Below, piece by piece: positions 3,298 through 57,987 of a stretch of 64,000 nt of DNA (position 1 is its first letter; the number at the start of each line of letters is the position of its first letter). Below the pieces are notes generated by a model, which was not told where the DNA came from, searched no databases, and worked only from the letters and a program-made list of their open reading frames with translations. The position numbers were made by a program, and so were the translations under genes. The stretch comes from Escherichia coli (GTDB lineage: Bacteria > Pseudomonadota > Gammaproteobacteria > Enterobacterales > Enterobacteriaceae). Location of the stretch: NCBI RefSeq assembly GCF_024223415.1, contig NZ_CP100500.1; one strand, written 5' to 3'.

Positions 3298-4989
3298 ATG
3301 AAAACGCTGCTGATTATTGACGCTAATCTCGGTCAGGCACGCGCCTATATGGCGAAGACCCTGCTGGGCGCGGCGGCGCGAAAAGCAAAACTGGAAATCA
3401 TCGACAATCCGAACGACGCAGAAATGGCGATTGTTCTCGGTGATTCCATCCCGAATGACAGCGCGCTGAACGGTAAAAATGTCTGGCTGGGCGATATTTC
3501 CCGGGCAGTTGCGCACCCTGAGCTGTTCCTGAGTGAAGCCAAAGGCCATGCGAAACCTTACACTGCGCCGGTCGCTGCGACAGCACCGGTTGCCGCCAGC
3601 GGTCCGAAACGCGTAGTTGCGGTGACTGCTTGCCCGACTGGCGTAGCACACACCTTTATGGCGGCTGAAGCCATTGAAACCGAAGCGAAAAAACGTGGCT
3701 GGTGGGTGAAAGTTGAAACCTGTGGTTCTGTTGGTGCGGGTAATGCAATCACCCCCGAAGAAGTAGCCGCAGCGGATCTGGTGATTGTGGCGGCAGATAT
3801 CGAAGTGGATCTGGCGAAATTTGCTGGTAAACCGATGTATCGTACCTCTACTGGTCTGGCGCTGAAGAAAACCGCGCAGGAACTGGATAAAGCGGTTGCT
3901 GAAGCAACGCCGTATGAACCGGCGGGCAAAGCTCAAACGGCGACCTCTGAAGGTAAGAAAGAGAGTGCAGGCGCATACCGTCACTTGCTGACGGGTGTCT
4001 CTTACATGCTGCCGATGGTCGTTGCAGGTGGTCTGTGTATCGCGCTTTCTTTTGCTTTTGGTATCGAAGCGTTTAAAGAGCCGGGTACGTTGGCAGCGGC
4101 GCTGATGCAGATTGGTGGTGGTTCAGCCTTTGCGCTGATGGTGCCGGTACTGGCAGGTTATATTGCCTTCTCCATTGCCGATCGTCCGGGTCTCACGCCG
4201 GGTCTGATTGGCGGTATGCTGGCGGTCAGCACCGGTTCTGGCTTCATTGGCGGTATTATTGCGGGCTTCCTGGCTGGTTACATTGCGAAGTTAATCAGTA
4301 CGCAACTGAAACTGCCACAGAGTATGGAGGCGCTGAAACCGATCCTGATCATTCCGCTAATTTCCAGTCTGGTGGTCGGTCTGGCGATGATCTACCTGAT
4401 CGGTAAACCGGTTGCTGGCATTCTCGAAGGGTTGACTCACTGGCTGCAGACCATGGGGACTGCGAATGCGGTTCTGCTGGGGGCGATCCTCGGTGGCATG
4501 ATGTGTACTGACATGGGCGGTCCGGTAAATAAAGCAGCGTACGCATTCGGTGTGGGTCTGCTGAGTACTCAAACCTATGGCCCGATGGCGGCGATTATGG
4601 CGGCAGGTATGGTGCCACCGCTGGCAATGGGTCTGGCAACAATGGTGGCGCGTCGCAAATTTGACAAAGCGCAGCAGGAAGGTGGCAAAGCCGCTCTGGT
4701 TCTTGGTCTGTGCTTTATTTCGGAAGGTGCAATTCCGTTTGCTGCTCGTGATCCGATGCGTGTGCTGCCGTGCTGTATCGTGGGTGGGGCGCTGACTGGC
4801 GCAATCTCAATGGCGATTGGTGCGAAACTGATGGCACCGCACGGTGGTCTGTTTGTTCTGCTGATCCCTGGCGCTATTACGCCGGTACTGGGTTACCTGG
4901 TAGCAATTATTGCCGGTACGCTGGTGGCGGGTTTGGCCTATGCCTTCCTGAAACGTCCGGAAGTGGACGCAGTAGCGAAAGCCGCGTAA
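3298..4989 (+). CDS. fruA: Fructose-specific PTS EIIB'BC component
   Basis: 563-aa ORF with N-terminal IIB-like domains and a C-terminal polytopic IIC domain. Confidence 0.95.
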   Translation: MKTLLIIDANLGQARAYMAKTLLGAAARKAKLEIIDNPNDAEMAIVLGDSIPNDSALNGKNVWLGDISRAVAHPELFLSEAKGHAKPYTAPVAATAPVAASGPKRVVAVTACPTGVAHTFMAAEAIETEAKKRGWWVKVETCGSVGAGNAITPEEVAAADLVIVAADIEVDLAKFAGKPMYRTSTGLALKKTAQELDKAVAEATPYEPAGKAQTATSEGKKESAGAYRHLLTGVSYMLPMVVAGGLCIALSFAFGIEAFKEPGTLAAALMQIGGGSAFALMVPVLAGYIAFSIADRPGLTPGLIGGMLAVSTGSGFIGGIIAGFLAGYIAKLISTQLKLPQSMEALKPILIIPLISSLVVGLAMIYLIGKPVAGILEGLTHWLQTMGTANAVLLGAILGGMMCTDMGGPVNKAAYAFGVGLLSTQTYGPMAAIMAAGMVPPLAMGLATMVARRKFDKAQQEGGKAALVLGLCFISEGAIPFAARDPMRVLPCCIVGGALTGAISMAIGAKLMAPHGGLFVLLIPGAITPVLGYLVAIIAGTLVAGLAYAFLKRPEVDAVAKAA

Positions 4990-5144
4990 TAAAAGGTGTG
5001 TTACAGGGCAGAAATTTACTGCCCTGTATCATTGGATGAGCGCAAAGAGAATGACCGGTTTGTGAATGTAATTTTATGAATTTAAATGGTTTTATCTTTC
5101 AGTAGAAACCTGAAACGTTCATCAAACACTAAGGTTATTTCCTC

Positions 5145-44981: not shown

Positions 44982-45020
44982 CCTGATGTTCATATCTTAA
45001 CTTGCTGAATTTTCGCCCTT

Positions 45021-45056
45021 TGTAGGCCGGATAAGGCGCTCGCGCCGCATCCGGCA
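45021..45056. repeat. REP element
   Basis: TGTAGGCCGGATAAGGCGCTCGCGCCGCATCCGGCA. Confidence 0.85.
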
Positions 45057-45198
45057 GGAAACGCCGGACCGAATATGCCTCTTAAGTATTTATCTGATTC
45101 TGCAACTGAATCCTTCCGCTCAAGCTAACCCCGCCATTATCAACTATGCTTTTCTCTTAATTCGCTGAAAACAACAGTAAAAGAATGAGGAAAGCATC

Positions 45199-46116
45199 AT
45201 GCCACTCTTAAAGCTCTGGGCAGGTTCACTGGTTATGTTGGCAGCCGTGAGCCTGCCGCTACAGGCGGCTTCCCCCGTTAAAGTCGGTTCAAAAATCGAT
45301 ACCGAAGGTGCGCTACTCGGCAATATCATTTTGCAGGTGCTGGAAAGCCACGGCGTACCGACGGTGAATAAAGTGCAACTCGGAACGACTCCTGTGGTGC
45401 GCGGGGCGATTACTTCCGGTGAACTGGATATCTATCCGGAATATACCGGCAATGGCGCTTTCTTCTTTAAAGATGAAAACGATGCAGCGTGGAAAAACGC
45501 GCAGCAAGGTTACGAGAAAGTCAAAAAGCTCGATTCGGAGCACAACAAGTTAATCTGGCTGACGCCCGCGCCTGCAAATAACACCTGGACTATCGCCGTG
45601 CGTCAGGATGTGGCAGAGAAAAATAAACTCACTTCGCTTGCCGACCTGAGTCGTTATCTGCAAGAGGGCGGCACCTTCAAACTGGCAGCCTCGGCAGAGT
45701 TTATCGAACGCGCCGATGCGTTACCCGCGTTTGAAAAAGCCTATGGCTTTAAGCTCGGTCAGGATCAGTTGCTGTCACTGGCTGGTGGCGACACGGCGGT
45801 GACGATCAAAGCCGCTGCCCAGCAAACCTCTGGCGTTAATGCTGCAATGGCTTACGGCACTGACGGCCCGGTAGCGGCGCTGGGGCTGCAAACCTTAAGC
45901 GATCCGCAAGGTGTGCAACCTATCTACGCGCCTGCACCAGTGGTGCGTGAGTCGGTGTTGAGGGAGTATCCGCAAATGGCACAGTGGCTACAGCCAGTCT
46001 TCGCCAGCCTCGATGCAAAAACATTGCAGCAACTGAATGCCAGCATTGCTGTGGAAGGACTGGATGCCAAAAAAGTGGCTGCCGACTACCTGAAACAAAA
46101 AGGGTGGACGAAGTAA
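45199..46116 (+). CDS. osmF: Glycine-betaine-type ABC transporter periplasmic binding protein
   Basis: 305-aa ORF with signal peptide; first gene of the osmF-yehYXW operon. Confidence 0.92.
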   Translation: MPLLKLWAGSLVMLAAVSLPLQAASPVKVGSKIDTEGALLGNIILQVLESHGVPTVNKVQLGTTPVVRGAITSGELDIYPEYTGNGAFFFKDENDAAWKNAQQGYEKVKKLDSEHNKLIWLTPAPANNTWTIAVRQDVAEKNKLTSLADLSRYLQEGGTFKLAASAEFIERADALPAFEKAYGFKLGQDQLLSLAGGDTAVTIKAAAQQTSGVNAAMAYGTDGPVAALGLQTLSDPQGVQPIYAPAPVVRESVLREYPQMAQWLQPVFASLDAKTLQQLNASIAVEGLDAKKVAADYLKQKGWTK

Positions 46117-46122
46117 TTTCCC

Positions 46123-47280
46123 GTGACTTATTTCCGTATTAATCCTGTTCTGGCGCTGCTGCTGTTGCTGACGGCAATCGCAGCGGCGCTGCCGTTTATC
46201 AGTTACGCGCCTAATCGTTTAGTTTCGGGTGAGGGGCGTCATCTCTGGCAGCTGTGGCCGCAAACGATCTGGATGCTGGTGGGCGTTGGTTGCGCCTGGC
46301 TGACGGCCTGTTTTATTCCCGGTAAAAAAGGCAGCATTTGTGCACTCATTCTGGCGCAATTCGTCTTCGTATTGCTGGTGTGGGGAGCTGGAAAGGCGGC
46401 GACCCAACTGGCGCAAAATGGCAGTGCGCTGGCGCGTACCAGCCTCGGCAGTGGTTTCTGGCTGGCTGCGGCGCTGGCATTGCTGGCCTGTAGCGATGCC
46501 ATCCGCCGAATCTCCACGCATCCGCTGTGGCGCTGGTTGTTGCATATGCAGATTGCCATTATTCCGCTGTGGTTGCTGTACTCCGGCACGCTTAACGATC
46601 TCTCACTAATGAAAGAATACGCCAACCGTCAGGATGTGTTTGACGACGCGCTGGCACAACATCTGACGTTGCTGTTTGGTGCGGTGCTGCCTGCGTTAGT
46701 GATTGGTGTGCCGTTGGGCATCTGGTGCTACTTTTCCACTGCTCGGCAGGGGGCAATTTTTTCTCTGCTCAATGTCATTCAGACCGTGCCTTCGGTGGCG
46801 CTCTTTGGCCTGTTGATTGCGCCGCTTGCCGCGCTGGTGACGGCCTTTCCGTGGCTGGGGAAGCTCGGCATAGCAGGAACCGGAATGACACCCGCACTGA
46901 TTGCGCTGGTGCTCTATGCCTTGCTGCCGCTGGTGCGCGGCGTGGTAGTCGGCTTGAACCAGATCCCGCGCGATGTGCTGGAGAGCGCCAGAGCGATGGG
47001 CATGAGCGGGGCGCGGCGATTCCTGCATGTTCAGTTACCACTGGCGTTACCGGTATTTCTGCGCAGCCTGCGGGTGGTGATGGTGCAAACTGTAGGTATG
47101 GCGGTGATTGCGGCGTTAATCGGCGCAGGCGGTTTTGGTGCGCTGGTTTTCCAGGGGCTGCTAAGCAGCGCCATTGATTTAGTGTTGCTGGGGGTGATCC
47201 CGGTAATTGTTCTGGCGGTGCTTACCGACGCGCTGTTCGATTTGCTTATCGCACTGCTGAAGGTGAAACGTAATGATTGA
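46123..47280 (+). CDS. yehY: ABC transporter permease
   Basis: 385-aa polytopic ORF, GTG start in the track. Confidence 0.9.
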
Positions 47281-48199
47281 ATTTAGCCATGTCAGCAAAC
47301 TGTTCGGCGCACAAAAAGCCGTTAACGATCTCAATCTCAATTTTCAGGAAGGGAGTTTTTCGGTGCTGATTGGCACATCTGGCTCCGGCAAATCCACCAC
47401 CCTGAAAATGATTAACCGCCTGGTGGAGCATGACAGCGGAGTGATCCGCTTTGCCGGAGAAGAAATTCGCTCGCTGCCAGTACTGGAGTTGCGCCGCCGG
47501 ATGGGCTATGCCATTCAATCTATTGGCCTGTTCCCCCACTGGAGCGTGGCGCAAAACATCGCTACCGTGCCGCAATTACAAAAATGGTCGCGGGCGCGGA
47601 TTGACGATCGTATCGACGAATTAATGGCGCTACTGGGGCTGGAGTCAAATTTGCGTGAGCGTTATCCGCATCAGCTTTCCGGTGGTCAGCAGCAACGTGT
47701 GGGAGTGGCGCGTGCACTGGCTGCCGATCCGCAAGTCTTACTAATGGATGAACCTTTTGGCGCACTGGACCCGGTAACGCGCGGCGCGTTGCAACAAGAG
47801 ATGACGCGCATTCACCGTTTGCTGGGGCGTACCATTGTGCTGGTCACTCATGATATTGATGAGGCGCTACGGCTGGCAGAACATCTGGTATTGATGGATC
47901 ACGGTGAAGTAGTGCAGCAGGGCAATCCGCTGACGATGCTGACTCGTCCGGCGAATGATTTTGTCCGCCAGTTTTTTGGACGTAGTGAACTGGGTGTGCG
48001 CCTGCTTTCGTTACGTAGTGTGGCGGATTACGTGCGTCGCGAAGAACGAGCAGATGGTGAGGCACTGGCAGAAGAGATGACGCTACGCGATGCGCTCTCT
48101 CTGTTTGTTGCGCGGGGATGCGAGGTGCTGCCGGTGGTGAACATGCAGGGCCAGCCTTGCGGCACGCTGCATTTTCAGGATCTGCTGGTGGAGGCGTAA
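47273..48199 (+). CDS. yehX: ABC transporter ATP-binding protein with C-terminal CBS-like domain
   Basis: 308-aa ORF with Walker A (GTSGSGKST) and ABC signature (LSGGQQQR). Confidence 0.92.
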
Positions 48200-48203
48200 G
48201 CGT

Positions 48204-48935
48204 ATGAAGATGTTGCGCGATCCGCTGTTCTGGCTCATTGCTCTGTTTGTGGCGCTGATTTTCTGGCTGCCTTACAGCCAGCCGCTGTTTGCTGCCTTGT
48301 TCCCACAACTGCCACGACCCGTTTATCAGCAAGAAAGTTTTGCAGCTCTGGCACTGGCTCATTTCTGGCTGGTGGGAATTTCGAGTTTGTTTGCGGTGAT
48401 CATTGGCACTGGTGCCGGAATTGCTGTCACTCGCCCGTGGGGCGCGGAATTTCGCCCACTGGTGGAAACTATTGCCGCCGTTGGACAGACTTTTCCGCCC
48501 GTCGCAGTGCTGGCGATCGCCGTTCCGGTGATCGGCTTTGGTCTGCAACCAGCGATTATCGCCTTGATCCTTTACGGTGTGCTGCCCGTCCTGCAGGCGA
48601 CACTTGCCGGGCTGGGAGCGATTGATGCCAGCGTGACAGAAGTTGCGAAAGGTATGGGAATGAGTCGTGGTCAGCGACTGCGTAAGGTCGAGCTACCGCT
48701 GGCGGCTCCGGTGATTCTGGCGGGCGTGCGAACTTCGGTGATTATCAACATTGGTACGGCGACGATCGCCTCAACGGTAGGGGCCAGCACGCTGGGTACG
48801 CCCATCATCATCGGGCTTAGCGGATTTAATACCGCGTATGTGATCCAGGGGGCGTTACTGGTGGCACTGGCGGCGATCATCGCAGACCGCCTGTTTGAAA
48901 GGCTGGTGCAGGCGCTTAGCCAGCACGCAAAATAA
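48204..48935 (+). CDS. yehW: ABC transporter permease
   Basis: 243-aa polytopic ORF. Confidence 0.9.
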
Positions 48936-49023
48936 AGGTATAACCTGCGAGCATGACGCCACCAATTCCGCCTAACGCCATAAACAGGAACAGGGCGATG
49001 ACCCCAATTTTAGCTATGCGCAT
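48916..49023 (-). CDS. yohO: Small membrane protein YohO (35 aa)
   Basis: Minus-strand [38 protein letters not shown] overlapping the yehW 3' end; matches recalled YohO. Confidence 0.75.
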
Positions 49024-49082
49024 AATGCACTCCTTATGTTAACGAAAGGATTGTACAGTAAAGCGCATTTGTTAACGAATCA

Positions 49083-49767
49083 TTAAATGCCGAGTGGGAA
49101 AATATCATGGCCTTGTTCTTGCCAACTGGTGAGTTGCTGCTGTTGGGCGGAGGTTCGATTTTCACCGCACCACACCAGCAATGTACGGCCTTCGAATAGT
49201 TCAGGGCGTAGTTGATTGAGCGAGTGGGCGAGGACATCAATGCGCCATCCTTGTTGACTGGCAATCCAGCCCTCCAGCCACAGACGGGTGGTATCCTGAA
49301 TATTCCAGCCAACCACCAGCGCATCTTTACCCTGTTTTTTACGTGCCGAAGCCAGACAAATGGCGATGTAGTTGATCAGTACGCCGTCGAGGATCGCCAG
49401 CAGCGCCTGGAGAGTCGGTTGTTGGCACTGAAGCCGTCGGCGCAGAGGAATAAACAGATGTGTGGTGAGTGTCTGGGCGGGGTAATCCTGACCGCGCTCT
49501 TTGATCCACGTTCGCAGGCTATGTAGATTGCCGCTTTGCAGGTAAGTCAGTAATGTTTCTTGCTGATCGCGCCAGCCGTTCTGCACATCAACATTTTCAT
49601 TACTGAGCAGCATTTTAACTTTGCTGACCTGCACGCCGTTGTCGATCCAGCGTTTGATCTCGCGGATCCGGTCAATATCGGCATCGTTGAACAGCCGATG
49701 ACCGCCGTCTGTCCGTTGCGGTTTCAGCAATCCGTAACGCCTCTGCCACGCGCGTAACGTGACAGGG
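49083..49767 (-). pseudogene. mlrA: MerR-family curli regulator MlrA (YehV), 5'-truncated by prophage insertion
   Basis: Minus-strand translation matches MlrA from ...PVTLRAWQRRYGLLKPQRTDGGHRLFNDADIDRIREIKRW... to the native C-terminus; the first ~16 codons (MALYTIGEVALLCDIN, part of the HTH) are replaced by phage DNA. Confidence 0.85.
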
Positions 49768-49804
49768 ATTAAGGGTAAACTAACTGATTTTACAAGTTTT
49801 TATT

Positions 49805-51091
49805 TTACCCCACTTTCTTATGGGGCATACATGGGACACTTTCAGATAGTCTTTTGTTAAGGAGTTCTATCTGTTCGTGATTGTTGTCTTTCATCCATGC
49901 TCCGTAAACATTGAATACCATTTGTGCGTTTGTGTGGCCCATCTGGCTTGCGATAAAACTAGGATTAGCTCCAGCGGCAAGTGACCAGCATGCATAAGTA
50001 TGCCTGGATTGGTACGATTTTCTGTGTCTCAGACCTGCGCGTTTTAAGATACTTGTCCATGACTCCCTGATGGAGTCAACCTTATAGTGCGGTCCGGAAA
50101 ACTGCCGCTGTTTTATTACCTGAGGACTAAAAACAAAAGTGCATTTATGCACAGTACTTCTCCCATATTCCCTCTGCTTTACCTCTACAGAATGTTGCTT
50201 TCCAAGCATGGTCATTTCCGCCTGACTTTTAAGAGCATCAATAGCTGGTTGAACCAGATGAATTGTCCTTCCGGTGCCAGCATCGGTTTTTGGTGGAGTG
50301 AATTCGCCAAGTTTTGTATAATTCCTACGGATGGTTATAGTCCTTGCTTTAAGGTCTATATCTTCCCATGCCAGCGATACCAACTCCCCGTGACGAATAC
50401 CCGTGTATACAGCGAGAATCCACAGGTTTTTTGTTTGTTGATGACGGCAAGCCTCAATAAAACGAATAAATTCGTCACGGGTGAGAGGATCTGGTTTTAC
50501 CTTGGACTTTTTTAAGGGAGCCAGACCGTTAAATGGGTTTCCTGAGGTATAACCATTATCTGTTGCAAATTGAAACATTCCAGCTATGGTTGTCATATAG
50601 TAGTTTACCGTGACCACTGAGCGCCCTTTTATGGAAGAAGTCTTTCCATTAGAAAGCTTTTGGTAACCGGTCAACAAATCTCTCCTTACGAAAAGTAAAT
50701 CCTCTTTTGTTATGGATGAAACCAGTTTTTTTTCACCTAACATTGGTAACATGTTTTTAATTACTGACTGGTAACGGTTAAGTGCATTCGCACAAATCTC
50801 AATTTTCTTAAGGTCCAACCATTTTTCCGAAAGTGCCTTAACGGTTATCTCTCTTTTTCCCAGACCAAAGTGTTTCAGGTTAGGGGAATTAGGGAACTGC
50901 GCGGCGTAGTCGAAACTCCCCATTCTGATTGCAAAACAAACGGAAGTGCGAAGTTCACCTGCGATCTTCCGGTTTTTGGCGGTGTCAGGAACACCGAGGT
51001 TTTCTCTGACACGTTTGCCATTATAGTGAAACCATATACGGAGTGATCCTCCATGGTTTTCAACGCCTGTCGGGTATGATACGTTACTCAT
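49805..51091 (-). CDS. int: Phage tyrosine integrase
   Basis: 428-aa ORF; C-terminal catalytic-domain residues (RHTYACW, GHTNAQMVFNVY); transcribed toward the att junction. Confidence 0.9.
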   Translation of the reverse strand: MSNVSYPTGVENHGGSLRIWFHYNGKRVRENLGVPDTAKNRKIAGELRTSVCFAIRMGSFDYAAQFPNSPNLKHFGLGKREITVKALSEKWLDLKKIEICANALNRYQSVIKNMLPMLGEKKLVSSITKEDLLFVRRDLLTGYQKLSNGKTSSIKGRSVVTVNYYMTTIAGMFQFATDNGYTSGNPFNGLAPLKKSKVKPDPLTRDEFIRFIEACRHQQTKNLWILAVYTGIRHGELVSLAWEDIDLKARTITIRRNYTKLGEFTPPKTDAGTGRTIHLVQPAIDALKSQAEMTMLGKQHSVEVKQREYGRSTVHKCTFVFSPQVIKQRQFSGPHYKVDSIRESWTSILKRAGLRHRKSYQSRHTYACWSLAAGANPSFIASQMGHTNAQMVFNVYGAWMKDNNHEQIELLNKRLSESVPCMPHKKVG

Positions 51092-51124: not shown

Positions 51125-51379
51125 TTAACCGGAACTTGCATTTTTGGCACCTGGTTGTTTCTGGTTTTCGATCCATCGCATAATTTCTTCGATGTTGTAC
51201 AGGCATTCACTGTAGTGCCCCGGATCACCTTCTACAGCGTAATGGCGGTATTCTTTTCCCTGCATCCATGACTTTCTTCTTGCCCGCTCAATGGTGCCAG
51301 GCTTTAGCCCTGTTGATGCAATGAGGACTCTCTCCGTACACCATTTGCTGGGGGTTATCTGATAGATGATTGTTTGCAT
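51125..51379 (-). CDS. Putative excisionase / small DNA-binding protein
   Basis: 84-aa ORF immediately upstream of int in the same orientation; assigned by position and size only. Confidence 0.5.
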   Translation of the reverse strand: MQTIIYQITPSKWCTERVLIASTGLKPGTIERARRKSWMQGKEYRHYAVEGDPGHYSECLYNIEEIMRWIENQKQPGAKNASSG

Positions 51380-52820: not shown

Positions 52821-53159
52821 TTACATGTTCCCCATAACGGTATCGCTCATGTCGTTAACCATGCTCTGCCAGATTTCTTTGCCGCTTTGCGTCAGCTCGT
52901 TTCCACGAACGCATTTGCTTAACAGCTGAATACCAACGGCTTCCCATTGGGGGTAATTTTCTTTGATAGCCTTCAGAGCATAACCATCGATTAAATCCCT
53001 GATACCTTTAACCCCACCGATGATGTTTACTCGTATGGATTGCCCATTGACATTAATCATGAAATGATCTCCGTTGGTGGCGGATATGTGGTTGTGCAGT
53101 GCAGCCGCATACTGATTTGCCAGCGCATTGAGGCGGAAATTTTGTGTAATGAGTGGCAT
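52821..53159 (-). CDS. Hypothetical phage protein
   Basis: 112-aa ORF, stop/start abutting neighbours. Confidence 0.5.
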   Translation of the reverse strand: MPLITQNFRLNALANQYAAALHNHISATNGDHFMINVNGQSIRVNIIGGVKGIRDLIDGYALKAIKENYPQWEAVGIQLLSKCVRGNELTQSGKEIWQSMVNDMSDTVMGNM

Positions 53160-53905
53160 TATTTACCCTCCCAACCAATCACCTGAAACAGCCCCATTTT
53201 CGGGTGATACCAGCGGGTACCGCGTGGCTCTGCCTCTGACATCATCTGATGAAATGCTTTCATGAACGGCTCAAGCTCCACGATAGCCCGGCGAGAAAGA
53301 AGACCATCTGGCGTCATAAATTCGTGCGTATCGGTTGGGATGCTGTAGGCATTGACCAGATTGCGGCACTTGGCATCAGTCATTCCGCTTTTGGCGACCA
53401 CCTGGCGATAACCGACATATCCGGCGCGCATATTTCCGCGTTTGATGTTCTCCACAGCTTTGGTGACCGTTTCGATCTTCTCTTCAACATGACTCAGGCG
53501 CTTCTGCTGGCGAACGGCATCGGCGGCCATTGCAGCGATCATCTCCATTTCCGTCAGCGGCGCGTGAGTTCGGAAATAGCTGTTAACCAGTTCGCGCTGA
53601 ACCTGCCATGCAAGAGTATCGTTAAAAGGCTTCGTCAACATCAGGTAACCAGACTCGAAAAGAATGATCCCTTTGGCAGTTCGCGCGGCAAAGGCATCAG
53701 AAAGTGACTCCGTACGTATTACGTCCGCAGTCATTTCAAGAAAATCCACCCCTTCGATAAAGTGAGAACGGTTGCGGTTAAACGCAGCACGGGCGGTACC
53801 TTCCGGGCGCTGGTGGACGTCATCAATCATTGCAAATGTCACAACACGCTGACCGCGATATTCGATTACCGGAAACTGTTTGTTGTTGATGGTTACAGTA
53901 TTCAT
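53159..53905 (-). CDS. Hypothetical phage protein, possibly antirepressor/regulatory-like
   Basis: Start placed at MNTVTINNKQFPVIEYRGQRVVTF (RBS GGAGAT upstream); domain assignment is from memory and uncertain. Confidence 0.5.
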   Translation of the reverse strand: MNTVTINNKQFPVIEYRGQRVVTFAMIDDVHQRPEGTARAAFNRNRSHFIEGVDFLEMTADVIRTESLSDAFAARTAKGIILFESGYLMLTKPFNDTLAWQVQRELVNSYFRTHAPLTEMEMIAAMAADAVRQQKRLSHVEEKIETVTKAVENIKRGNMRAGYVGYRQVVAKSGMTDAKCRNLVNAYSIPTDTHEFMTPDGLLSRRAIVELEPFMKAFHQMMSEAEPRGTRWYHPKMGLFQVIGWEGK

Positions 53906-53948
53906 TTTTATCTCCAGACAGCCCGGCGTGTAATACCGGGCATATGTA

Positions 53949-54776
53949 TTACTTAACCTGAATAAATGGTGTGTTGGCACCGCTGGTCATGTATTGCGGC
54001 AGTGTACCGTTCCACTTGTTGATGGCTTCCAGCTCCATAACGTTTGGGTTCTGGCGCAGAGCTTCACCGCGTAAACGAATAGCATCGGCTTCGGCCTGGG
54101 CTTTTGTGCGAATCGCATCTGCCTGTCCGGCAGCTTCCGCGCGCAACATGTTGGCTTCCGCTTCGCGCTGTTTTACTTCCTGCTCGCGTTGCAGGGTTTT
54201 CTGGTTGGCCGTGACTTTGGCATTAATGCTGTCGATAACGGTTGGCGGGTACTCCGGCTTACCCACATATGAGAGGCTCATTACCTGAATACCGATAGGT
54301 GTCATCTCTGCCTGAATGTCTTTAAGAGCTTCATCCAGCAGCTCAGACTTGCCGCCGTCGATAAATTTGTCAGTGGTCATTTTGCTGGCCAGTCGGTTGA
54401 GTGCGTCGGCGATCTTCTGGCGCAGGTCAGTGTCGGTAATGTCATCCACGCCTTTGCGGTAGGTCTGAAACACCGTGGTAACTTTGGATGGATCAACTTT
54501 GTAGGCCACGCCAATGTGATAGCCGATGGTTGTACCGTCACTCATCTGGAAACTGAACGGTTCATCGTAGGTCTTCATTTGTTTGAAGGTGGGGAAGATA
54601 TAAACTTCAGTATTCCAGCCAGTCCAGTAGCGACCAACACCGACCACCTCACCGACGCCTTTGTCGTCGCCCAGTTTATTTACCTTGATGCCAACATTAC
54701 CTGGTTCAACGCGATCGCAACCGACAAGGCCAATAGTCGGCAGAACAATGGCTAAAGCAAAAATAATTTTTTTCAT
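53949..54776 (-). CDS. SPFH/band-7 (prohibitin/flotillin-like) domain lipoprotein
   Basis: 275-aa ORF; lipoprotein signal MKKIIFALAIVLPTIGLVGC; SPFH-like core followed by an Ala/Glu/Arg/Gln-rich coiled-coil tail (EQEVKQREAEANMLRAEAAGQADAIRTKAQAEADAIRLRGEALRQ). Confidence 0.7.
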   Translation of the reverse strand: MKKIIFALAIVLPTIGLVGCDRVEPGNVGIKVNKLGDDKGVGEVVGVGRYWTGWNTEVYIFPTFKQMKTYDEPFSFQMSDGTTIGYHIGVAYKVDPSKVTTVFQTYRKGVDDITDTDLRQKIADALNRLASKMTTDKFIDGGKSELLDEALKDIQAEMTPIGIQVMSLSYVGKPEYPPTVIDSINAKVTANQKTLQREQEVKQREAEANMLRAEAAGQADAIRTKAQAEADAIRLRGEALRQNPNVMELEAINKWNGTLPQYMTSGANTPFIQVK

Positions 54777-54961
54777 CTTTTATCCTTAGTGAAAGAAAGA
54801 CCCTTGTAAATGGCATAAATGCAGGGCGGGGTCAGAAACGCCAGTGCAAAGCCAGAAATAACTGCTATCGTATCCTTCATGGATATAAGGAACGGAACGA
54901 TTAATCCGTAAATACATGTGATAATTGCCAGTGATATAACTATTCTGAAATAAATGTTCAT
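54773..54961 (-). CDS. Small membrane protein, translationally coupled to the SPFH lipoprotein
   Basis: 62-aa ORF with two hydrophobic helices; stop overlaps the SPFH start by 4 nt. Confidence 0.55.
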   Translation of the reverse strand: MNIYFRIVISLAIITCIYGLIVPFLISMKDTIAVISGFALAFLTPPCIYAIYKGLSFTKDKR

Positions 54962-55021
54962 GGTCCTCCTGATGTATTCGGCTTGCCTTATTTAATTGCG
55001 TCATAGTTAATTTCGTTTACG

Positions 55022-55412
55022 TCAGAATGGTTTTGTTGCCATCAGTTCGTAATATCCGGCGCTCCATGTGTCATATTTTCTGAACCATTTTTCTGTATAC
55101 TGTTTCCTGGCGATGAGTCTGCGCAGTCGTCTGATTGTTCGCTGGTGTGCGCGGGTATACTCTGTGGTTGATTCTCCACGTTTCCATATCTCATTCCTGT
55201 TGAAGATAAAACGCTTGTCAGGATAGCGTTGTCGGAATCCTGAACGTTCAAAAGCGCGGGTGGTCATAAAGAATGCCAGGTAACGAATTGCCGTTTTTCG
55301 AGTGAGGCATTTTTTTTGTTCTTCCGTGGCGTGTTACAAAAAATAACGGGCCGACGGGTGTATCATGTTTCTGTAATGCCTGGTCAATGGCGCTGGCGGT
55401 GCGGTTGTCGAT
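55022..55412 (-). pseudogene. Hypothetical phage gene split by a frameshift at a T8/A8 homopolymer
   Basis: A 57-aa ORF (MIDNRTASAIDQALQKHDTPVGPLFFVTRHGRTKK...) and the 81-aa track ORF 55022..55267 become one ~130-aa ORF if the A8 run (plus-strand T8 at ~55309-55316) is shortened by 1 nt. Confidence 0.4.
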
Positions 55413-55601
55413 CATTTCTTTATTTCTCCCGAATAACGTTCATGACTCATTACTTCCCAGTTCCGGCCGTCGTCTTTCGATAACAGCCGCCAGCGACGGT
55501 TAACCTTCAGACTGAGATATCCGGTGCGCTGTATCCGATGCGGAAATATCCGTCGGCATCGGTACAACAACAGGACCTGCAATGCCTGCCGGTGGATCCG
55601 C

Positions 55602-55817
55602 TCAGGAATGCGTGTTGCTGTTAATGCCACCGGTTTCCTCCTGAGCAGGTGCTGTTATCTGATACCCCGCTCTTTCTGCCAGCCGTATGAATGTATCCAT
55701 GCTGGCAATCAGCTCGCCATCGCGGACTTTGCAGACACCTGTGACTTGGCCATTTTCAATTGTCATAACGATCTGCACTTTTTCGCGCACAACAGATACA
55801 GGGGATAAATTAGCCAT
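55602..55817 (-). CDS. Hypothetical phage protein
   Basis: 71-aa ORF, 1-nt overlap with the upstream ORF. Confidence 0.45.
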   Translation of the reverse strand: MANLSPVSVVREKVQIVMTIENGQVTGVCKVRDGELIASMDTFIRLAERAGYQITAPAQEETGGINSNTHS

Positions 55818-56176
55818 CAGTTAATTCCTCCACTGGTATATTTTTCTTTTTCGTAATCAACAACCTCTTTTAAAAGGTTGTCTACAATTAACTTCCCCGA
55901 TTCAGTTAGATACTCAGTGTGTTGATTAATATTGATGGCATTGCGGTATGCGGCAAGTATTGCGGTCTCGCCATCCGTCCGTCCAAATTCAACACGGGTA
56001 AGACCTTCAAATCGTAATAACAGTTGTGTCATGAAGTGTTCCGTAATTTCGATGGTAGTTAACCCTCCGTCAGGAAGATTTACGATGAGAAGATTTCCTC
56101 CTGTTTTACGTTGCATCCGCTGTAATGCTGTTGTGACTATGCGGTGACGATATTTACCAATGATTTCATATGCCAT
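55817..56176 (-). CDS. Hypothetical phage protein
   Basis: 119-aa ORF. Confidence 0.5.
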   Translation of the reverse strand: MAYEIIGKYRHRIVTTALQRMQRKTGGNLLIVNLPDGGLTTIEITEHFMTQLLLRFEGLTRVEFGRTDGETAILAAYRNAININQHTEYLTESGKLIVDNLLKEVVDYEKEKYTSGGIN

Positions 56177-56552: not shown

Positions 56553-56773
56553 GTTCTTTGCTCCTTTAATGTGTCTCTGGCGCTTCTGGCGTATTGTTGT
56601 GCAAGTAAAAAGATGTCATCCGAAAGTTCATCACATTCTTCATCACCTGAAGCCGAAATGATTAACCCCGCTTCAAGCAGTACGGCAATGTGATGAAAAG
56701 CTGTTTCCGGTTCGTTGGTGAGGCCTTTGAACATTTTCATTTTATGCTTCCTCCTGATTTTGTTTATAAGCAC
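56549..56773 (-). CDS. Hypothetical phage protein with basic N-terminus
   Basis: 74-aa ORF, N-terminus KIRRKHKMKMFK. Confidence 0.4.
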   Translation of the reverse strand: MLINKIRRKHKMKMFKGLTNEPETAFHHIAVLLEAGLIISASGDEECDELSDDIFLLAQQYARSARDTLKEQRT

Positions 56774-57161
56774 CAGTCAGTAACCACATCGGATCACAGC
56801 CAAGAACATTAGCCAGAGGAATAATCTGGCTTGCCAGAGGCTCCCTCTTGCCACTTTCCCACTGGATGATAATTTCTTCATCGAGATTGAGCAGCCTGGC
56901 GAGTTCGGCGGTTGTTAAGCCGCAGTCTTCGCGTTGGGTGCGAATCCGATTCTGGGAATTAATAGCTAAATTTTGTTTGCATAAACGTGACGCGGTGAGG
57001 CTATATTTTTGAGTTACAGCCAGGATGGAGCTGGCAAGTTCAATTAACTCAGGGTTATTGCTGCTATACAGTAGTGCACCAGCCCCTACTAAGAGCTGAA
57101 TATTCTCAAGAGCATCGTGCTGATTTGTTGGTAACCCCATATACGATGACATTTTTCTCAT
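56742..57161 (-). CDS. HTH (XRE-like) domain protein, first gene of the leftward early operon
   Basis: 139-aa ORF with a C-terminal helix-turn-helix (GLTTAELARLLNLDEEIIIQWESGKREP). Confidence 0.55.
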   Translation of the reverse strand: MRKMSSYMGLPTNQHDALENIQLLVGAGALLYSSNNPELIELASSILAVTQKYSLTASRLCKQNLAINSQNRIRTQREDCGLTTAELARLLNLDEEIIIQWESGKREPLASQIIPLANVLGCDPMWLLTGAYKQNQEEA

Positions 57162-57294: not shown

Positions 57295-57987
57295 TTATGC
57301 AAAACGGTGTAGTGTCATAGGCCAACTGACAATTACTTTTCCGTCAATGTGAAGTTGTTCGAAGTCTTCCGGTTCGATAGCCCAATCCTTGTAAGCTGGG
57401 TTGTCAGATATCACCGTTAGAGTATCTTTGATTTTTTGAAGTCTTTTGATGTGCGATGTTCCAGAGTATGTAAAGGCGTATATACCATCACCATTAAATG
57501 TGCGAACTGATACATCTACAAATACCAAGTCTTCAGGGTCTATTGTGCCTTTCATACTGTCGCCGTGGGCGTTTATTGCTTTGATTGCTGATGCTGGTCT
57601 GCCGCCAAAAACTCTTGATGCGTATCCTGGCTCTATCGCTATAGATCTGACAATGTCAGGAAAATCAGAGTTATAACTACCAGGTCCGCAACTATATCTG
57701 ATGTCTAAAACATCCACGACATACGAATCAGTAACCCAATCTTCAGAAATGTTACGTATTTGGTGTGAGTCTGCAGAGGTCACGATTTCCATTGGGCCAA
57801 CACCCGATGCGAGCCATTCCGGGTTAACGCCCAAAACTTTTGCTATTTCGACTGTTTTTCTGGAACCGTTGGCTTTGTTAAGTAGTTGGTTAACACTGGA
57901 CTGAGCCATACCCACTTCTTTGGCCAGCCTACCTTGCGTAAATTTTGCGTTGCGCATAGCTAAATCAAGTCGTTCTGAAAATGTCAT
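57295..57987 (-). CDS. cI: Phage CI-type repressor (N-terminal HTH, C-terminal S24 LexA-like peptidase)
   Basis: 230-aa ORF; HTH (FTQGRLAKEVGMAQSSVNQL) and C-terminal autocleavage-domain motifs (GDSM...K); divergent from cro. Confidence 0.85.
   Translation of the reverse strand: MTFSERLDLAMRNAKFTQGRLAKEVGMAQSSVNQLLNKANGSRKTVEIAKVLGVNPEWLASGVGPMEIVTSADSHQIRNISEDWVTDSYVVDVLDIRYSCGPGSYNSDFPDIVRSIAIEPGYASRVFGGRPASAIKAINAHGDSMKGTIDPEDLVFVDVSVRTFNGDGIYAFTYSGTSHIKRLQKIKDTLTVISDNPAYKDWAIEPEDFEQLHIDGKVIVSWPMTLHRFA

Follow-up and report, generated by a model that had tools for sequence, protein, structure and literature searches.

The sequence analysed here is a 64,000-nucleotide (nt) stretch of the Escherichia coli contig NZ_CP100500.1 (RefSeq assembly GCF_024223415.1), hereafter the window, which carries a prophage. 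Two overlapping prophage genes on its minus strand, between positions 53949 and 54961, encode a two-helix membrane protein of 62 amino acids (aa) and an SPFH/band-7 lipoprotein of 275 aa. Judged by homology, the two genes are a widespread and already annotated pair of both lytic and temperate phages from several bacterial phyla, and not special prophage defence cargo. The features of the pair are as follows, with the basis of each in brackets.

54773..54961, minus strand: open reading frame (ORF) of the 62-aa two-helix membrane partner (N4 gp19 / phrog_1130 family)
53949..54776, minus strand: ORF of the 275-aa SPFH/Band-7 lipoprotein (phiP27 L05 / N4 gp20 / phrog_200 family)
54773..54776, minus strand: ATGA, the partner stop codon overlapping the SPFH start codon (read from the sequence)
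54717..54776, minus strand: predicted lipoprotein signal peptide with lipobox LVGC, Cys20 (sequence and homologue conservation)
54153..54713, minus strand: SPFH (Band_7) alpha/beta domain, residues 22-208 (Pfam envelope and AlphaFold2 (AF2) secondary structure)
54015..54245, minus strand: Ala/Glu/Arg/Gln-rich helical region, helices 178-242 and 244-254 (AF2 model, composition and alignments)
53997..54017, minus strand: C-terminal family-specific motif K-W-N-G-T-L-P (homologue alignments)

The sequence GGAGG lies immediately 5' of the 62-aa ORF (54965-54969) and AAGGA lies 6 nt 5' of the SPFH start codon. The ATGA overlap is of the kind indicating translational coupling of the partner and SPFH genes, and overlaps of 1 to 20 nt between the corresponding genes also occur in P88, N4, Gekk3-15, ORM_20, Munch and a P1-like plasmid. 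An earlier note on this DNA had placed both ORFs, with the same sizes and a 4-nt overlap, at these positions; the ATGA is present in the sequence and the placement is correct.

The SPFH lipoprotein

The 275-aa protein matches Pfam Band_7 (PF01145) with an E value of 3e-31 (109 bits), residues 22-208 covering positions 2-176 of the 176-position model, and the PHROGs family phrog_200 ('lipoprotein') with an E value of 7e-115. Its N-terminus, MKKIIFALAIVLPTIGLVGC followed by D, contains a canonical lipobox with Cys20. The signal MKK-IIFALAIVLPTIG-LVGC20 satisfies criteria of the PROSITE PS51257 type, namely a basic N-terminus, a hydrophobic core, a [LVI][ASTVI][GAS]C lipobox and a Cys at positions 15 to 35, and lipidation is thus predicted from sequence. 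Cys20 is kept in at least 90% of 89 homologues and is invariant in 28 paired or fused sequences; Gly48 is also among the conserved positions of the family. The residue at +2 is Asp in the window lipoprotein and in its P88, Fraca, Munch and P1-like homologues. Asp at this position is the classical inner-membrane retention signal for E. coli lipoproteins, and it suggests that the 275-aa protein would be retained in the inner membrane.

The AF2 model, built on an alignment of 89 sequences (predicted local distance difference test score, pLDDT, 92.4; predicted template modelling score, pTM, 0.74), consists of an SPFH alpha/beta domain, a helix at 178-242, a second helix at 244-254 and a flexible tail. 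Ala, Glu, Arg and Gln together make up 49% of residues 178-254. The region that follows carries the motif K-W-x-G-x-L-P, with W255 and G257 unchanged throughout the homologue alignments and P260 conserved at 90% or more, and it is of low pLDDT or disordered in the monomer models.

Foldseek searches with the model gave a probability of 1.0 along the whole chain (~260-300 columns) for HflC and HflK, which were the top matches, and for prohibitin 1/2, erlin 1/2, stomatin, flotillin, QmcA and the shoulder of the major vault protein. All of these are builders of closed cages. When a profile of the family was compared with solved chains, the matches were prohibitin-1 (4e-11, residues 7-243), prohibitin-2, HflK (2e-7), HflC (3e-6) and QmcA (7e-6), and among these solved chains stomatin and flotillin were not reached. 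The helical region 178-254 aligns with the helices of HflK/C and prohibitin and is the counterpart of the CC1/CC2 helices that form the wall and cap in SPFH cages. A complete cage-type architecture with a predicted lipid anchor is well supported, and the SPFH/band-7 lipoprotein with a coiled-coil tail that the earlier note had described was recovered by Pfam, AF2 and Foldseek. The protein is not an orthologue of HflK or HflC, as its only NCBIfam matches, TIGR01932 hflC (26.5 bits, cut-off 134.4) and TIGR01933 hflK (23.2 bits, cut-off 159.4), score far under the equivalog cut-offs.

The two-helix partner

Hydropathy analysis of the 62-aa product shows two hydrophobic segments and the C-terminus is basic. 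AF2 folds the protein as a helical hairpin (residues 2-26 and 31-53, pLDDT 76-84), and it matches phrog_1130 ('membrane protein') at E=2e-23. The ORF is intact across 30 distinct alleles, with dN/dS of 0.06-0.85. In a comparison of 80 IMG/VR loci and two phage records carrying the lipoprotein (n=82), the partner ORF was found exactly 185 nt 5' of the SPFH start in 81 loci, and the remaining locus ends at the SPFH start. Integrases, repressors and neighbouring genes vary among the 82 loci while the pair persists, and a geometry that is fixed amid variable flanks in this way lies far beyond chance.

Small two-helix ORFs also abut or overlap the SPFH start in N4 (gp19), P88 (gp11), Fraca, a P1-like plasmid (78 aa), Gekk3-15, ORM_20, Munch, Lak-B5 and a metagenomic relative. 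The 78-aa ORF of the P1-like phage-plasmids is unannotated; it lies at 4775-5011 (minus strand) of locus L084, from the E. coli plasmid pMTY1886_untypable_1, and at 2284-2520 of locus L100. An alignment of 17 free-standing and fused partners has two invariant residues, P23 and S27, both at the turn between the helices, where the common motif is P-x-[LM]-[IV]-S.

Many of the distant homologues (35-46% identity) are 320-390 aa long, with the two-helix module fused at the N-terminus and followed by a basic linker and by a signal peptide that still has its lipobox. A hidden Markov model (HMM) built from free-standing partners only detected this N-terminal module in 15 of 150 representatives of the SPFH family (E values from 8e-16 to 6e-4), each of which retains the lipobox. 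The same HMM found a match within 1.5 kb of the SPFH gene in 13 of 16 diverse loci that extend from E. coli phages to a Prevotella Lak phage and include PVP-SE1 (gp115, two genes upstream), DL54 and a crAss-like phage; no match was found within that distance in phiEa104, phiE125 and Magneto. One metagenomic representative, P0171 (344 aa), has the two-helix module at its C-terminus, the reverse of the other fusions and an arrangement in which the expected topology would be inverted; this may be an artefact, or the phage concerned may have reassigned a stop codon that is read through here.

Taken together, the repeated fusions, the constant adjacency and the translational coupling speak for a physical complex of the partner and the SPFH protein. 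On this evidence the 62-aa protein is to be regarded as a genuine conserved, often fused subunit of the SPFH module, and it is not NfeD-like. For the earlier note's two-helix membrane protein, the hydropathy, hairpin model and phrog_1130 match all agree; its translational coupling has in its favour the ATGA, the spacing in 81 of 82 loci, the fusions and the HMM matches in 13 of 16 loci. The NfeD-like features that the note had raised for this partner did not appear, and such an assignment was rejected: the 17 partner or partner-module sequences gave no match to NfeD or to any other Pfam domain at E ≤ 0.001, and 62 aa are too short for an oligonucleotide/oligosaccharide-binding (OB) fold after two helices.

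Occurrence and genomic setting

A translated search of 50,697 phage records found homologues of the SPFH lipoprotein in 386, in 372 of them over at least 80% of the length, and an exhaustive search of cluster representatives returned 229 clusters at E ≤ 1e-30. The closest named relatives are L05 of the Stx2e phage phiP27 (99.6% identity), gp12 of the P2-like phage P88 (92%) and gp20 of the virulent phage N4 (62%); the proteins of Stx2a-converting phages and of P88 are 92-97% identical to that of the window. Carriers further include N4-like phages of Klebsiella, Erwinia and Shigella, the rV5-like myoviruses PVP-SE1 and 4MG, the FelixO1-like phiEa104, PaP3-like Pseudomonas podoviruses, Burkholderia phiE125, phiCbK-like phages of Caulobacter, the jumbo phage Munch, crAss-like phages and the Prevotella Lak megaphages. 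Among 5426 complete E. coli genomes, 392 (~7%) carry the lipoprotein gene, and 34 of the places where it occurs are plasmid-borne, including at least one P1-like phage-plasmid.

In annotated genomes the gene always lies amid early or DNA-metabolism genes. It follows the RNA polymerase II (RNAPII) genes gp15/16 and precedes the replication genes in N4, and stands between cox and the replication endonuclease gene in P88. It is found near an exonuclease gene in PVP-SE1, near thymidylate synthase in ORM_20 and near RtcB in Magneto, and in Munch it likewise falls within an early/DNA-metabolism block. In P1-like plasmids the pair is placed between dmt and ban, the DnaB helicase gene, upstream of ban and on the same strand; the ban promoter is C1-controlled in canonical P1. 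Lysis genes (endolysin, holin, spanin) or virion genes adjoin the pair in none of the genomes examined, so that the structural or lysis role that would have spoken against the earlier note was not seen.

Two observations concern particular settings. The slot between dmt and ban that the P1-like pair occupies is variable and tRNA-flanked, and in canonical P1 it holds plp, upl and tciABC instead. N4 gp18 (locus L090, 3407-3721), just upstream of gp19/gp20, is annotated 'superinfection exclusion, similar to P22 gp17', and the window has no homologue at that position; this may be coincidence or a hint of a shared envelope-related block.

Within the window the pair was said to lie between xis and cI, and this location holds, with all the genes concerned on the minus strand:

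49805-51091, minus strand: integrase
51125-51379, minus strand: excisionase (phrog_539)
57295-57987, minus strand: CI-like S24 repressor

A crude consensus scan of positions 53000-56000, of a kind that can miss promoters, predicted no sigma-70-like promoter, where 3.9 would be expected by chance, and on the minus strand no terminator. The scan lends no support to a moron that carries such signals of its own, and since neither is predicted the pair appears to be transcribed within the leftward early operon under repressor control. Exclusion by a prophage would require expression in the lysogen, which is not indicated for a pair inside a repressed early operon with no predicted promoter.

Relation to known systems

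The window pair is the same two-gene module as N4 gp19/gp20, phiP27 L05 (P27p05) and P88 gp11/gp12 (PHROGs 1130 and 200), and differs from these in nothing essential: both proteins match their respective PHROGs, the genes are adjacent on one strand and the arrangement in N4 is identical. The N4, phiP27 and P88 entries are uncharacterised, however, and their annotations read 'lipoprotein', 'serine protease' or 'SPFH domain protein'; the assignment therefore names the module without explaining it. No description of a function was found in the literature searched, as the earlier note had supposed. A 2026 study of an N4-like phage states that the reason for the occurrence of the gene in a phage genome 'remains unclear' (PMC13239085). 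A second paper likewise describes the role as unclear, and others go no further than the HflK/C analogy.

In shape the SPFH protein resembles E. coli HflK/HflC as found with FtsH (PDB 7VHP, 7WI3 and 9CZ2), having an SPFH domain and long coiled-coil helices. HflK/C faces the periplasm from the inner membrane, as the window pair probably does, and its cage encloses membrane proteins. It differs in that two paralogues make it up and both have a transmembrane helix at the N-terminus, whereas the window encodes one lipid-anchored SPFH protein and a hairpin protein. Prohibitin PHB1/PHB2 (PDB 8RRH and 9O9Z), the best profile match among solved structures, forms a cage on the outer face of an energy-transducing membrane; unlike the window protein it is eukaryotic, mitochondrial, transmembrane-anchored and made of two paralogues, and identity is ~15%.

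The gene organisation resembles that of the SPFH-NfeD operons (QmcA-YbbJ, PDB 8Z5G; YqiK-YqiJ; archaeal PH1511-PH1510), in which an SPFH gene lies beside a co-transcribed gene for a small membrane protein that sits in or at the cage. The window pair shows such an adjacent partner, with its 4-nt overlap, the fixed spacing in 81 of 82 loci and fusions in 15 of 150 representatives. Unlike these operons, its partner has no NfeD/OB-fold domain and its SPFH protein is predicted to be exported, whereas QmcA faces the cytoplasm; an N-terminal partner fusion with a retained lipobox is not an NfeD arrangement either.

T4 Imm/Sp, T5 Llp, phi80/T1 Cor and TP-J34 Ltp are early exclusion proteins of phages, small envelope proteins or lipoproteins that act on the cell surface or membrane. 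Their likeness to the window pair is at most a functional analogy; none is an SPFH protein and they share neither sequence nor fold with it. A known defence system was rejected, since both proteins and four neighbours gave no family match in PADLOC-DB v2 (E ≤ 0.01). P1 Upl/Plp, considered as a named equivalent, was also rejected; canonical P1 Plp is a 125-aa unrelated protein encoded on the opposite strand and shares only the variable slot. Published CRISPR interference data on essentiality in P1 are irrelevant here, as they concern plp and upl, which are non-homologues.

Proposed role and alternatives

The domain, the fold, the linkage to the partner and the distribution are established by the results above. 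From these observations we infer a topology, a route of sorting, a mode of assembly, a time of expression and a role for the module. The 62-aa protein would insert into the inner membrane as a helical hairpin with the P-x-L-I-S turn at the periplasmic surface and both ends in the cytoplasm, where they are placed because the C-terminus of the partner and the linker of the fusions are basic. The 275-aa protein would be exported by its signal peptide, lipid-modified at Cys20 and held in the inner membrane, and its helix of ~65 residues would oligomerise it into a closed ring or cage, as in HflK/C, prohibitin, stomatin and flotillin. Such a cage could fence off a patch of membrane that encloses the hairpin partner, with translational coupling setting a fixed proportion of the two products. 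In the fused relatives a single precursor would be made, and cleavage by signal peptidase II at the retained lipobox would yield the same two products. Synthesis of both proteins would be driven from the phage early operon in the lytic cycle and would not occur in the repressed lysogen. The likely benefit would be an inner membrane that is protected until programmed lysis, either by blocking the entry of later phage genomes or by stabilising the energised membrane. We favour membrane protection because it would benefit lytic and temperate phages alike and fits both early expression and an envelope location. To the whole proposal, in which the two components form an SPFH scaffold at the periplasmic side of the inner membrane during lytic growth and protect the membrane of the infected cell, we tentatively assign a probability of roughly 40%.

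Several points weigh against this proposal. An AF2 model of the partner and SPFH protein concatenated in the manner of the natural fusions gave a confident hairpin and no confident docking (pTM 0.58, C-terminal tail pLDDT <60). The +2 residue is Glu in PVP-SE1 and Tyr in N4, so that the Asp+2 rule is not uniform across the family. Exclusion proteins tend to evolve fast and to have a narrow range; in the present family, identity is still 35-46% between phages whose hosts belong to different bacterial classes, and for this reason a generic target fits better than a phage-specific block. The argument for early lytic expression leans in part on a consensus scan that can overlook promoters. No experiments on any member of the SPFH lipoprotein family were found in the literature searched, where its role is called unclear. 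Finally, an HflK/C-like SPFH protein encoded by a Pasteurella multocida prophage, PM0222 (OAZ06802.1; 25-35 kDa), has been reported in lysogen cells and outer-membrane vesicles (PMC9872710); its kinship with the family of the window pair is putative.

The main rival is that the phage cage modulates FtsH: by mimicking, joining or competing with HflK/C on the periplasmic side, it would retune the protease and so stabilise or destabilise such substrates as CII-like regulators, Xis, membrane proteins or LpxC in the infected cell. The nearest solved relatives by profile are indeed regulators of membrane AAA proteases, with prohibitin-1 (4e-11), HflK (2e-7) and HflC (3e-6) ahead of QmcA; HflC and HflK lead the Foldseek list and supply the sole NCBIfam matches, the predicted extracytoplasmic inner-membrane topology is that of HflK/C, and a universal target would account for a family that is conserved among phages of both Proteobacteria and Bacteroidota. 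The prophage itself has a CII-like regulator at 56742-57161. Family resemblance is nevertheless the sole link to FtsH, and the NCBIfam scores of 23-26 bits are far under the cut-offs of 134-159 bits. A single SPFH gene with a hairpin partner takes the place of the K/C paralogue pair and a lipid anchor that of the transmembrane helix, and many carriers are strictly lytic and have no lysogeny decision to make; we consider this explanation rather unlikely. A bolder proposal, which we would rate no higher, is that many phage lineages, N4 and lambdoid phages to crAss-like and Lak phages, coat the outer side of the host inner membrane, early in infection, with an SPFH nanocage of their own. Lipoprotein and hairpin protein would compose it, in some phages as one precursor cleaved by signal peptidase II, and it would capture a universal membrane machine of the host, for example FtsH or the site of genome entry.

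The earlier note had reasoned from the accessory position of the pair in a prophage to superinfection exclusion or abortive infection. Spelt out, the prophage would protect its lysogen either by exclusion at the envelope or by an abortive infection in which the SPFH scaffold gates membrane damage. The pair does lie in the nonessential xis-cI region, its distribution is mosaic, being kept while the flanks vary and present in the 392 E. coli genomes counted above, and PHROGs places phrog_1130 in its category 'moron, auxiliary metabolic gene and host takeover'. That a lipoprotein of one phage can exclude others is well established (T5 Llp, Cor and Ltp), and the adjoining N4 gp18 bears the annotation 'superinfection exclusion'. 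The argument is weakened by the N4, rV5-like, PaP3-like, phiCbK-like, crAss-like and Lak carriers, as the module is common in obligately lytic phages, for which protection of a lysogen is meaningless. Together with the blank PADLOC result for the pair and its four neighbours and the prediction of no promoter or terminator of its own for a pair co-oriented within a repressed early operon, this carriage makes defence of the lysogen the less likely reading. No PHROG annotated for exclusion was matched either. We thus regard it as decidedly unlikely. Superinfection exclusion may still be an early lytic function, whereas lysogen immunity is disfavoured by the same repressed operon.

Control of the timing of lysis seems more doubtful again. 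Here a periplasmic cage would delay or sequester holin, pinholin or spanin, or resist lysis from without, and so lengthen the productive period. An envelope pair that includes a small membrane protein and is predicted by genomic position to be pre-late is compatible with this, N4 is noted for its very delayed lysis, and solved SPFH cages such as QmcA-YbbJ enclose small membrane proteins. Against it, the pair never adjoins endolysin, holin or spanin genes in the genomes examined, phages of ordinary lysis timing also carry it and the PHROG search revealed no similarity to antiholins. We attach very little probability to the remaining explanation, that of a lysogenic-conversion or virulence lipoprotein, a triacylated protein exposed on the surface or on vesicles that alters the interaction of the host bacterium with an animal. 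It draws on the frequency of the module in Stx-converting prophages and on the claims made for PM0222, which besides its presence in vesicles activates Toll-like receptors 1/2 (TLR1/2) and whose deletion attenuates virulence (PMC9872710). Against it, the kinship of PM0222 is putative, as mentioned above, TLR1/2 activation is generic to bacterial lipoproteins, and lytic phages of environmental bacteria such as Caulobacter, Ochrobactrum and Erwinia carry the module, which makes virulence an improbable selected function.

Implications

The cages of SPFH proteins (HflK/C, prohibitin, stomatin and flotillin) have only recently been understood structurally and their physiological logic is debated. 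Conservation of the present module from coliphages to crAss-like and Lak phages, and its presence in ~7% of complete E. coli genomes, including Stx-converting prophages, implies a general step at the membrane in the encounter of phage and host. If its function is exclusion or control of FtsH, it would be a new mechanistic class for either field; if the nanocage reading is true, infected bacteria would contain a previously unrecognised membrane compartment made by a virus; and if the module proves to have no phenotype, a common annotation puzzle is left. The present analysis adds to the existing annotation a conserved, often fused subunit that is not NfeD, a span of lytic and temperate carriers, a predicted complete cage-type SPFH architecture with a lipid anchor and the weakness of the defence framing. 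That partner and lipoprotein are repeatedly fused with the lipobox kept suggests, in addition, an unusual maturation through an internal signal-peptidase-II site. Both N4 gp19/gp20 and the prophage pair are directly testable in E. coli K-12.

Neighbouring genes and other features

Directly 3' of the SPFH gene is an ORF6N/antirepressor-like gene (53159-53905, minus strand; phrog_1726, E=1e-69). A mechanically called GTG start at 53980 would make it overlap the SPFH gene, and the ATG at 53905 is likelier. The earlier note had associated this ORF with the pair, but as a third component it was rejected: it follows the SPFH gene directly in 17 of the 82 loci only and is elsewhere in the locus or undetected in the rest, and is therefore not a conserved neighbour. 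The 43 nt that separate the SPFH stop from the start of ORF6N contain a 5-bp GC stem with a 9-nt loop (53922-53940, CCCGG-N9-CCGGG), which has no T-run and is not a canonical terminator.

The 139-aa helix-turn-helix protein encoded at 56742-57161 (minus strand) matches the 'CII-like regulator' family phrog_4836 at E=5e-47. Its gene is directly 3' of that of the CI-like repressor and on the same strand, an order unlike that of lambda, and it may bear on the FtsH hypothesis.

Upstream of the pair, two overlapping ORFs on the minus strand, 55022-55267 (81 aa) and 55248-55415 (55 aa), match the C-terminal (50-130) and N-terminal (1-36) parts respectively of phrog_1886, a family of 135 positions whose function is not assigned in PHROGs. 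The same split and spacing are present in ~28 related IMG/VR loci, and the two ORFs represent either a conserved frameshift or an inherited split gene.

No tRNA genes were found across the window, and a tRNA integration site for the prophage was therefore rejected. The chromosomal flank (window positions 45000-49900) corresponds at 99.9% identity to E. coli yehW-yehX-yehY-osmF-mlrA, and the integrase end of the prophage abuts the region of mlrA (yehV), a known insertion site for Stx-type prophages.

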